Counted from the first letter of the stretch, positions 19,790-25,165 are shown. The stretch is DNA of 25,714 nucleotides from Minisyncoccia bacterium (GCA_041487555.1 JBGPNL010000001.1:1-25714), one strand, 5' to 3'. Numbers and translations: made by a program. Notes: generated by a model not told the origin, from the letters alone.

Positions 19790-20005
19790 TTATTGCCCAC
19801 CTTTTCCGGTGTGCTTTTTGATGCGGATCTTTTTGCTTCCGCGGCGGTTGCGCCTTTCTTCGATCTTGCGCAGGAGATCTTTGCGCTTCTTCGTTGTTTC
19901 TTCGGTTTGCTTGTCGGGCGGTTTCTTATCGGGCGCCGCCGGTTTTTCCGGCTCTTGTTTCGGAGGCGGAGCGGGCTCTTTTTTCGGTGTTTGTTCTGCG
20001 TGCAT
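19790..20005 (-). CDS. pup: Pup-like protein modifier (71 aa, C-terminal GKGGQ)
   Basis: MHAEQT start, TEET..DLL and terminal KGGQ parallel actinobacterial Pup (MAQEQT, TEETDDLL, QKGGQ); GAGGTG SD; lies 16 nt downstream of a PafA-like gene. Confidence 0.8.
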   Translation of the reverse strand: MHAEQTPKKEPAPPPKQEPEKPAAPDKKPPDKQTEETTKKRKDLLRKIEERRNRRGSKKIRIKKHTGKGGQ

Positions 20006-23494: not shown

Positions 23495-25165
23495 TTAGCT
23501 GAAGCCGATCTTCGGCCTCGTCTCTTTCGAGAGGTAGTTGATATCGTACTCTCCCTCGATGCCTTCGGTCGAAAGCATATCCGCAAGTACCTTTTCATTC
23601 GTGGGCAGCTGTTCGTTCTCGTGGATTTTTTCCCGGAGCGCGTTCATGAGGTCTTCGGGCTTAAGCCCTTTTTCCTCTTTGTTGCCGTCTCCGATCCAGC
23701 GATTATAGGCGAAGAGCCGCGCGCGCTCGGCAAGGCCGGCGAGCAAGGCTCCCGAAACGAAGAGGTCTTTGAAGCCGAGTATCCTCGACTTTCCCAATTG
23801 CCGTACCTCGATGAGCTGGTTCGCGTCCGTTTTCGGATCGAACATTGTTTCAACGCAAGGCAGAATGAGGCCCTCGCGGATCGCTTCCGCGGCGGTCTGT
23901 CCCGTGCGGGTAAAGCAGCTCGGATGGAGCGGCAGGGTCGCGGGAAGGTTCAACTCGAGGATCTGGGTCGCGCCTTCTTTCCCGGGGCGGGGAATGCGCT
24001 TCTTGAAGTAGAAGCGGCCGTCCCGGATTACCGCCGGATCGATGAGGTCGTCGCGATTTTCGGCGGCGATCAGGAGTATTCTCCGCTTTTCGAGGTGAAA
24101 TCCGCCGACAAGCGAATTCCACTGAGCGACGTGCGTATTGATCCATGGTGCGTTGTCGCTCATTCCCCGGTGGGGGAACATGGCGCCGAATTCGTCCCAA
24201 AGGATGACCAGCAGGTCGCATTCGGGTCCCGACTCGAGGATGAGATGGCGCAGGGCCGCCTCGGTATTTCCCAGCCATTTGTCGAGTAGTTCCGAACCGC
24301 GTACGAGGATGAAGCCAACCTTATATTCCTCGCCGAATCGTTCGTGGCATTTTTCGCGGAGTTCGCTTGCGATGCATTCCGCAAGCAGGGTCTTGCCGCA
24401 TCCCGGGGGGCCGACGAGCCGGCCGCAGACGATGAATGAATCTTCGGTCGCGACCTTAAGGAGGAATTCCTTCGCTCCCACGGGGTCGAGCAGGGGATTG
24501 ATCGCTTCTTCGCGAAGCTCTTTGATCTCCTTTTCGAGGCCGCGCACCATCGCGAATGTCTTTTTCGGATCGTAGGTGTCGAGCTCTTTTCCGGATGTTT
24601 TAATGCCGATCTTTTTTACCGCTATGCCGCCGCGCACAAGGAGATGATTACCTTGCTTCAACTCGGCGACGACAAGCCCTTCCGCCGGCAGGACCATTTG
24701 CAGTTCGCCCCGGCAGTTCTTCACTGCGAGCAAATTCCCGTGGAGCGAATCGAACGGCAAAAGCTCGCCCAGCTCCGCCAGATCGGCGCTTGCGTGAACG
24801 ACAACCTTGCCCGAAGCGATCCACAGCGTCTGTCCGCTCTTGAGGGAGTCGAGGTCGATATCTGTTCCGTCAAAGTGGGATTTCGCAAGCACATATACAA
24901 GATTCGCACTGCCGCCTTCGATCTCGATGACCCTCTTTTCTTTGTGGATGATCTTTACAAAGTAAGCGAAAGACCACGGAGCTGCCGCGATCTCGTCAAG
25001 TTGTTGGGAGGCTTCTTGAAGCCTGTCCGCAAGTTCGTCGATGATCTTTTCCTGCTCTTCCAGTTTTTTTTCGTTTTCTTTATTCGCTGTGCCGAGCAGC
25101 TTGAGCTGCATCCGCAAGGCCGCGATCTTCTGTTCCAGTTCCGGTCGATCGTTCGGAGGAGCCAT
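23495..25165 (-). CDS. arc: ARC/Mpa-family proteasome-associated AAA+ ATPase
   Basis: N-terminal coiled coil ending AAAPWSF, interdomain region, Walker A GPPGCGKT, pore loop GSELLDKWLGNTE, Walker B ILWDE, SRH AENRDDLIDPAVIRDGR, VSGALL and ENEQLP (Mpa ENEDLP); GAGGTG SD. Confidence 0.88.
   Translation of the reverse strand: MAPPNDRPELEQKIAALRMQLKLLGTANKENEKKLEEQEKIIDELADRLQEASQQLDEIAAAPWSFAYFVKIIHKEKRVIEIEGGSANLVYVLAKSHFDGTDIDLDSLKSGQTLWIASGKVVVHASADLAELGELLPFDSLHGNLLAVKNCRGELQMVLPAEGLVVAELKQGNHLLVRGGIAVKKIGIKTSGKELDTYDPKKTFAMVRGLEKEIKELREEAINPLLDPVGAKEFLLKVATEDSFIVCGRLVGPPGCGKTLLAECIASELREKCHERFGEEYKVGFILVRGSELLDKWLGNTEAALRHLILESGPECDLLVILWDEFGAMFPHRGMSDNAPWINTHVAQWNSLVGGFHLEKRRILLIAAENRDDLIDPAVIRDGRFYFKKRIPRPGKEGATQILELNLPATLPLHPSCFTRTGQTAAEAIREGLILPCVETMFDPKTDANQLIEVRQLGKSRILGFKDLFVSGALLAGLAERARLFAYNRWIGDGNKEEKGLKPEDLMNALREKIHENEQLPTNEKVLADMLSTEGIEGEYDINYLSKETRPKIGFS

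Follow-up and report, generated by a model that had tools for sequence, protein, structure and literature searches.

The operon that fills the last 6 kb of the window (the whole stretch of 25,714 nucleotides analyzed here) encodes an ATPase with an acidic N-terminal coiled coil and, a few genes away, a small basic protein tag, and the question is what this opposition of charge means. The preliminary description proposed a reciprocal charge swap relative to acidic Pup and its receptor Mpa, which would make the two proteins a co-evolved, orthogonal tag-receptor pair. We favor, at roughly even odds (a probability of about 0.5), a reading in which the coil belongs to a divergent, proteasome-less ARC, where it serves as the docking arm for the tag and lends added attraction through its acidity. 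This acidity would be a local tuning in two of the four members of the clade, not one side of a conserved, indispensable reciprocal swap.

The window makes up contig 1 of an assembly of 976 kb and 88% completeness (genome label G000), and the host genome is of a Parcubacteria type, with roughly 1 Mb. The operon lies on the minus strand and comprises, in order, the ARC, a Dop-like gene, a PafA-like gene, and the tag gene (Table 1). The named relatives of the Dop-like protein come from Candidatus Liptonbacteria and the 'Parcubacteria group', and just three relatives with more than 55% identity were found among 5.8 billion clusters; a scan of metagenome contigs with a Dop alignment yielded no confirmed hit. 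The 88%-complete assembly contains one ARC and a single pair of Pup-ligase genes. The 20S proteasome (PF00227) had no match in G000 (88% complete) or in G405 and G406 from its clade, the last of which belongs to the same class as G000; incomplete genomes such as these cannot prove absence. ClpP (PF00574) had no match in G000 (88% complete) and is present in G405, G406, G407, and G383. At the related locus L092, the ARC is immediately preceded by a ClpX-like gene (AAA_2, ClpB_D2-small) in divergent orientation.

Table 1. Features of the tagging operon and of its putative docking partners, with coordinates counted from the first nucleotide of the window.
Feature	Coordinates	Strand	Basis
ARC/Mpa-like AAA+ ATPase gene, 556 aa	23495..25165	-	PF00004, E 9e-19; TIGR03689, 194.1 bits
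Predicted N-terminal helix, ARC residues 7-59, corresponding to the unfoldase coiled-coil arm	24989..25147	-	AlphaFold2, block pLDDT 85-91
Acidic segment of the arm, ARC residues 30-58, net charge -7	24992..25078	-	11 D/E, 4 K/R
Two predicted beta-barrel (OB-type) domains after the coil, ARC residues 65-186	24608..24973	-	AlphaFold2 strand pattern, two blocks
Dop-like Pup-ligase family gene, 542 aa	21710..23338	-	PF03136, E 7e-83; matches TIGR03688 better than TIGR03686
PafA-like Pup-ligase family gene, 545 aa	20022..21659	-	PF03136, E 4e-59; matches TIGR03686 better than TIGR03688
Tag gene, 71 aa, ends GGQ, net charge +12; presumed ligand of the coiled coil	19790..20005	-	Same position in three other genomes
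Lys/Arg-rich tag segment, residues 39-55, hydrophobic only at L44, L45, and I48	19841..19891	-	Candidate counterpart of the Mpa-binding Pup helix

The ATPase is predicted to have the layout of Mpa and ARC, which consists of an arm, a proline hinge, OB domains, and an AAA module. An AlphaFold2 model built from a 34-sequence alignment (mean pLDDT 85) places a helix at residues 7-59 and beta barrels at residues 65-186, followed by the AAA module, and P63, the proline that terminates the coil, is invariant in the aligned ARC-like proteins (34/34). The window's own ARC had no Pfam OB-domain match at E 0.01; its relatives have matches to Prot_ATP_ID_OB. In the AAA module, the translation and its alignment to Mpa show the Walker A motif GPPGCGKT, the Walker B motif WDEF, and KWLG as the aromatic-hydrophobic-Gly pore loop. 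The closest solved relatives are the M. tuberculosis Mpa structures 5KWA, 5KZF, and 7PX9, and no close full-length relative was found in a library of 1.8 billion proteins, the best being about 30-34% identical; a scan of genome contigs with the ARC alone likewise yielded no confirmed hit. The match to TIGR03689 covers profile positions 12-488 of 512 and scores 194.1 bits, below the curated cutoff of 504.75. The C-terminus reads KIGFS, and the GQYL-type motif for 20S docking is absent; in the canonical comparison set, 76 of the 80 proteins listed end in G[QH]Y[LFV]. The protein would work like Mpa/ARC, yet it falls short of the model cutoff and lacks the GQYL tail, and no proteasome partner was found in the 88%-complete genome.

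The tag was called basic, and it is: its 71 residues have a net charge of +12, and the last 35 alone have +13. Neither the Pup models (PF05639 / TIGR03687) nor the UBact model (NF033388) matched it even at E 10 (as a control, NF033388 detected the UBact genes of Nitrospira), and a word-index search with the tag sequence returned zero homologues. On sequence grounds, the system is a variant of Pup-type tagging whose tag falls outside both the Pup and the UBact models. The N-terminus of the tag is rich in Pro, Lys, and Glu. Going by their place relative to residues 21-51 of Pup (PMC8755798), tag residues 39-55 are a candidate counterpart of the helix with which Pup binds Mpa. After the three hydrophobic positions of this segment comes a Gly-Ser break, and the heptad seam of Pup is far richer.

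The preliminary count of 11 D/E and 4 K/R in ARC residues 30-58 is correct, and the coordinates given with it (24992-25078) map exactly. This segment is the OB-proximal half of the predicted helix, and of all stretches of 29 residues in the 556-aa protein it is the most acidic. The arm follows a heptad register with L35, Q38, I42, L45, L49, A52, L56, and I59 at a and d, in which the acidic residues face outward: all five c positions (30, 37, 44, 51, and 58) are Glu, and D/E occupy b positions 36, 43, and 57. The bare charge cluster is not beyond chance, as 4125 of 5000 shuffles (82%) of the protein's own residues contain a stretch of 29 residues with a net charge of -7 or below, and only a comparison with homologous positions makes it remarkable. 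We therefore defined arm charge as the net charge of the 35 residues preceding the invariant proline (P63 in the window). By this measure the window's arm has -6, and 80 canonical ARC/Mpa proteins have -3 to +1; these were collected with their loci mostly from Actinomycetota, with some from Nitrospirota and Myxococcota. Among 86 ARC-like representatives (50%-identity clusters), arm charge ranges from -6 to +8 and the window is tied for the lowest value; across 82 ARC-tag pairs, with a mean of -0.45 (SD 2.0), it lies about 2.8 SD from the mean. The arm is acidic, as had been described, and within the ARC family it sits at the acidic edge.

How such an arm might meet the tag is suggested by the solved mycobacterial system. 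In the complex with Mpa, Pup residues 21-51 form one helix in an antiparallel three-stranded coil with the arm, the N-terminus of Pup points to the pore, and the contact of Pup with Mpa is given as the shared coiled coil only (PMC8755798; PMC3511204). The M. tuberculosis complex of the Mpa coiled coil with Pup is PDB 3M9D (cited in PMC5314882 and PMC8755798). Since Pup docks on Mpa at the arm, ARC residues 30-58 are most likely the docking site for the tag.

We modeled the complex from two copies of ARC residues 1-100 and tag residues 28-71, each supplied as an alignment of the clade. The prediction scored 0.54, compared with 0.00 for the best of three controls, and as the Mpa-Pup complex is already solved, this pass may reflect likeness only. 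The mark applied was reached by 58/80 solved complexes and by 2/110 mismatched pairs; scores of 0.60 or less, the range in which 0.54 falls, came from only 7/80 solved complexes, plus both of the passing mismatches. At least 81% of the contacts agree between runs, and the pLDDT of the partner is at least 63. The model weakly suggests that the tag docks on the ARC coiled coil.

It is conceivable that the coil does not bind the tag, and instead recruits some other partner or only stabilizes the hexamer, with the tag being read elsewhere. A tag segment with only three hydrophobic residues before its Gly-Ser break would suit such an arrangement, as would the KIGFS tail in place of GQYL and a proteasome that was not found in the 88%-complete genome. 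It would, however, leave unaccounted for an operon of ARC, two ligases, and tag that is kept in four genomes, and an arm, proline hinge, and OB domains that are placed as in Mpa; the complex prediction also leans, weakly, the other way. We regard a coil with no part in tag binding as highly improbable.

If the coil is the docking arm, the analogy with Mpa and Pup suggests that two neighboring arms come together as a coiled coil, onto which the middle of the tag would fold as a third, antiparallel helix. The Pro/Lys/Glu-rich N-terminus of the tag would then enter the pore for threading, and the Glu ladder at the c positions of the arm would attract the Lys/Arg-rich, hydrophobic-poor segment of the tag. 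Because the arm presents a Glu ladder and the tag is Lys/Arg-rich with few hydrophobic residues, charge attraction probably aids docking. The gene identities, the heptad pattern of the modeled helix, the charges, and the way these are spread among relatives are established here; binding of the tag to the coil, and any part that charge plays in it, is inferred.

The same operon of ARC, two ligases, and tag is kept in four genomes (the window, L091, L092, and L093-L095). The last 35 residues of the tags in this clade have +12 to +13, the basic C-terminal half is nearly invariant, and the tags end in GGQ, GGQ, SGQ, and TGE. Among the Pup-like systems of the class, tags of +12 to +13 occur only in this four-member clade. 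Arm and tag have -6 and +13 in the window, -5 and +12 in L092, -2 and +13 in L093/L095, and 0 and +13 in G405, where the N-terminal piece of the ARC is on a separate contig (L114). Tag charge is conserved in the clade, and arm charge is not. The ARCs of the window and L092 are 56% identical and both have the acidic c ladder, with Glu at 4/5 c positions in L092; the ladder is missing in L093 and in G405, which has four Glu at g instead. Heptad position g adjoins c on the helical wheel. We considered whether the c ladder (window and L092) and the g ladder (G405) form one conserved acidic face and rejected this as post hoc, L093 having neither. The N-terminal halves of the clade's tags differ strongly in charge, with about -7 in L094/L095 (P0152) and values between -2 and +2 in the three remaining members. 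Should the N-terminus be the end that is threaded, its charge would not be under constraint.

A plainer account of the arm is that its acidity is the drifted composition of an ordinary coiled coil with no role in recognition, and that the charge of the tag serves other partners, such as the binding grooves of the Dop-like and PafA-like proteins, nucleic acid, or the fate of the substrate. The 82% of shuffles with an equally acidic stretch fit this account, and so does an arm that varies from -6 to 0 within the clade under a constant tag. Glu ladders also occur, at b positions, in Nitrospira arms with either tag. The C-terminal end is the most conserved part of the tag, and in Pup it is the C-terminal end that binds the ligases (PMC5314882). 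Drift sits less easily with an acidic c ladder that was retained in both the window and L092, whose ARCs are 56% identical, with the four Glu of G405 at g, beside c on the helical wheel, and with an arm that deviates by 2.8 SD from the average of the 82 pairs, and the sign of the family-wide trend described below opposes pure drift. We take drift without a role in recognition to be possible and somewhat unlikely, and continue to favor a docking arm with locally tuned acidity.

The charge swap proposed at the outset can be judged against the canonical systems. In 52 actinobacterial loci with both genes, the last 35 residues of Pup have -6 to -11 (mean -9.6), and the ARC/Mpa arms have -2 to +1 (mean -0.6). 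At the level of net charge the premise of a swap fails, as actinobacterial arms are about neutral and not basic, which leaves no basic starting state for a reciprocal exchange. A strongly charged Pup thus functions with a near-neutral arm. Nitrospira with UBact, whose last 35 residues have +5 to +6, have arms of -1, about equal to the -1 to +1 of Nitrospirota with Pup beside the ARC, so that the switch between UBact and Pup leaves arm charge about unchanged. The arms of Nitrospira have Glu heptad ladders at b positions whichever tag they carry. Near-identical ARC-Dop-PrcB-PrcA-PafA loci of Nitrospirota come either with an adjoining Pup or with UBact on another contig and no tag at the locus (L012, L027, and L037 versus L024, L042, and L069).

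Outside these groups, the pairings point in several directions. An ARC lineage from the CPR (L098, L118, L119, and L120) has arms of +4 to +8 and acidic tags of -4 to -16, and L175, with an arm of -4 and a tag of +7, fits charge complementarity as well. L102 contradicts it, with an arm of -5 and a tag of -8, and neither L160 (arm +2, tag +3) nor L163 (arm 0, tag -15) fits. The basic-arm lineage has two further peculiarities (L098:1335-3140; L118:10546-12393, minus strand; L119:10542-12365, minus strand; L120:7004-8764; L122:2179-4176, minus strand): an RPHPGG motif just after the coil and, near the C-terminus, Gly-Phe motifs (such as MGF, LGF, TGF, and KGF) that recall the KIGFS of the window.

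The 82 ARC-tag pairs were drawn from class-level and order-level genome samples, contig look-ups, and the canonical loci; L099 and L104 (ARC-like genes without ligases or tags), L100 and L116 (no adjacent tag), and L103 (which ends before the tag) could not supply pairs. Across the 82 pairs, the raw Spearman correlation between arm and tag charge is -0.09 for the last 35 tag residues and -0.24 for the segment matching the Mpa-binding helix of Pup. When the ARCs are grouped at 45% identity into 14 lineage clusters, the last 35 residues give rho -0.34 (p 0.24) and the helix segment gives rho -0.48 (p 0.08), and independent contrasts on the ARC tree give r -0.003 for the last 35 residues and r -0.17 (p 0.13) for the helix segment. 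The anticorrelation of tag and arm charge across loci that had been called for is there in sign, which is negative in every version, and not in strength, being weak and, with relatedness accounted for, not significant. Opposite charge of tag and arm does not reliably hold across related genomes.

What speaks for a reciprocal swap in which charge sets the specificity of a co-evolved, orthogonal pair is this constant sign, together with the extremes: the most basic tags (+12 to +13) occur in the clade with the two most acidic arms that are paired with basic tags (-6 and -5), the most basic arms of any lineage are accompanied by acidic tags, and L175 fits. The complex prediction (0.54 against 0.00 for the best control) adds weakly to this, with the caveat that a similar complex is already solved. 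Co-evolution is hard to uphold, however, when, within a clade of four, the same basic tag occurs with arms of -6 and -5 and also with arms of -2 and 0, and when the independent contrasts (r -0.003 and -0.17) are not significant. The near-neutral actinobacterial arms, the indifference of the arm to the exchange of UBact and Pup in Nitrospirota, and the acidic arm with an acidic tag in L102 count against it too. The word 'orthogonal' has no referent here, because G000 has one ARC and one ligase pair, a single tagging system with no other to be kept apart from. We judge the reciprocal swap to be improbable. A broader version, in which the Pup-like systems of candidate phyla split into charge-matched classes and electrostatics, not a hydrophobic seam, sets the choice of tag, is doubtful. 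Its classes would be an acidic arm with a basic tag (the window and L175) and a basic arm with an acidic tag (L098/L118-L120), and if it were true, G405 and L093, with their neutral arms, would need acidic surfaces elsewhere to make up for them.

Set beside known systems, the locus shares with Mpa/ARC and Pup the N-terminal helix, the proline hinge, the double beta barrel, and the AAA module, as well as a Dop-like and a PafA-like enzyme and a small disordered tag that ends in Gly-Gly-Gln. Docking through a joint three-helix coil would be expected here too. It departs from them in charge (arm -6 versus about -1; last 35 tag residues +13 versus about -9.6), in a tag helix poor in hydrophobic residues, in an ATPase tail that reads KIGFS and not GQYL, and in a proteasome that was not found in the 88%-complete genome; the ATPase is about 30% identical to canonical ARC and scores far below the TIGR03689 cutoff.

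The UBact systems of Nitrospira were reportedly described by Lehmann et al. in 2017. They resemble the window's system in having a basic Pup-like tag (NF033388) that ends in Gly-Glu/Gln, an Mpa-like ATPase, and Dop/PafA homologues in the genome, and one member of the clade has a tag that, like UBact, ends in TGE. Unlike the window's tag, UBact has a less basic +5 to +6, its gene lies apart from the ARC locus in the three genomes examined, and the ARC of genomes with UBact has an arm of -1, a GHYL tail, and adjacent proteasome genes; the window's tag, for its part, has no match to the UBact model. Corynebacterium has pupylation without a proteasome, encoded as arc-dop-pup-pafA, with a canonical ARC and an acidic, canonical Pup. 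The window resembles it in having a tagging system with an ARC unfoldase and no 20S proteasome found, and differs from it in a basic tag and a non-canonical ARC.

Systems of this kind are not confined to the window. In the patescibacterial class of G000 and G406, 30/401 sampled genomes and 28/283 genera have Pup-ligase genes, and the distribution is patchy, with 0/2 in G000's own family and none in most of its order. The class systems (L153-L185) have one to four Pup-ligase paralogues, often two to four, beside an ARC-like ATPase. Arm charge in these systems runs from -4 to +8; the tags, mostly acidic or of mixed charge, end in GGQ, GGE, SGE, SGQ, TGE, PGE, PGQ, EGQ, DGE, EGE, and possibly PRQ and SRQ. 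If charge sets recognition, the window's clade would be a naturally inverted Pup-Mpa pair, a possible handle for orthogonal degradation or proximity tagging, and a test case for the co-evolution of a disordered tag with its receptor. As it stands, the acidic arm is local to two of four related genomes, and elsewhere in the family a charged tag needs no opposite arm. The wider by-product may matter more: within one class of bacteria with tiny genomes, Pup-like tagging is common (30/401) and its tags are very diverse.

Several individual loci in the survey have unusual contexts. At L102 (L102:155-10023; GCA_024449835.1), genes for an ARC-like protein, two Pup-ligases, and an acidic tag of 74 aa immediately precede ThiF (E1-like), UQ_con (E2-like), and JAB genes, and Pup-type and ubiquitin-type modules thus occur together in one gene string; ThiF genes also lie upstream of another ARC and ligase in L103. 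The ARC of L100 (L100:8058-9911; G407, Parcubacteria) ends in GQYL in a genome without a PF00227 match; there is no tag beside its ligases, which are followed by a 518-aa membrane-like protein. In L157 (L157:4184-5776; G726), the ARC-like gene is split into two frames of 267 and 245 aa; it is whole in the near-identical L158, and a frameshift or an assembly error probably accounts for the split.
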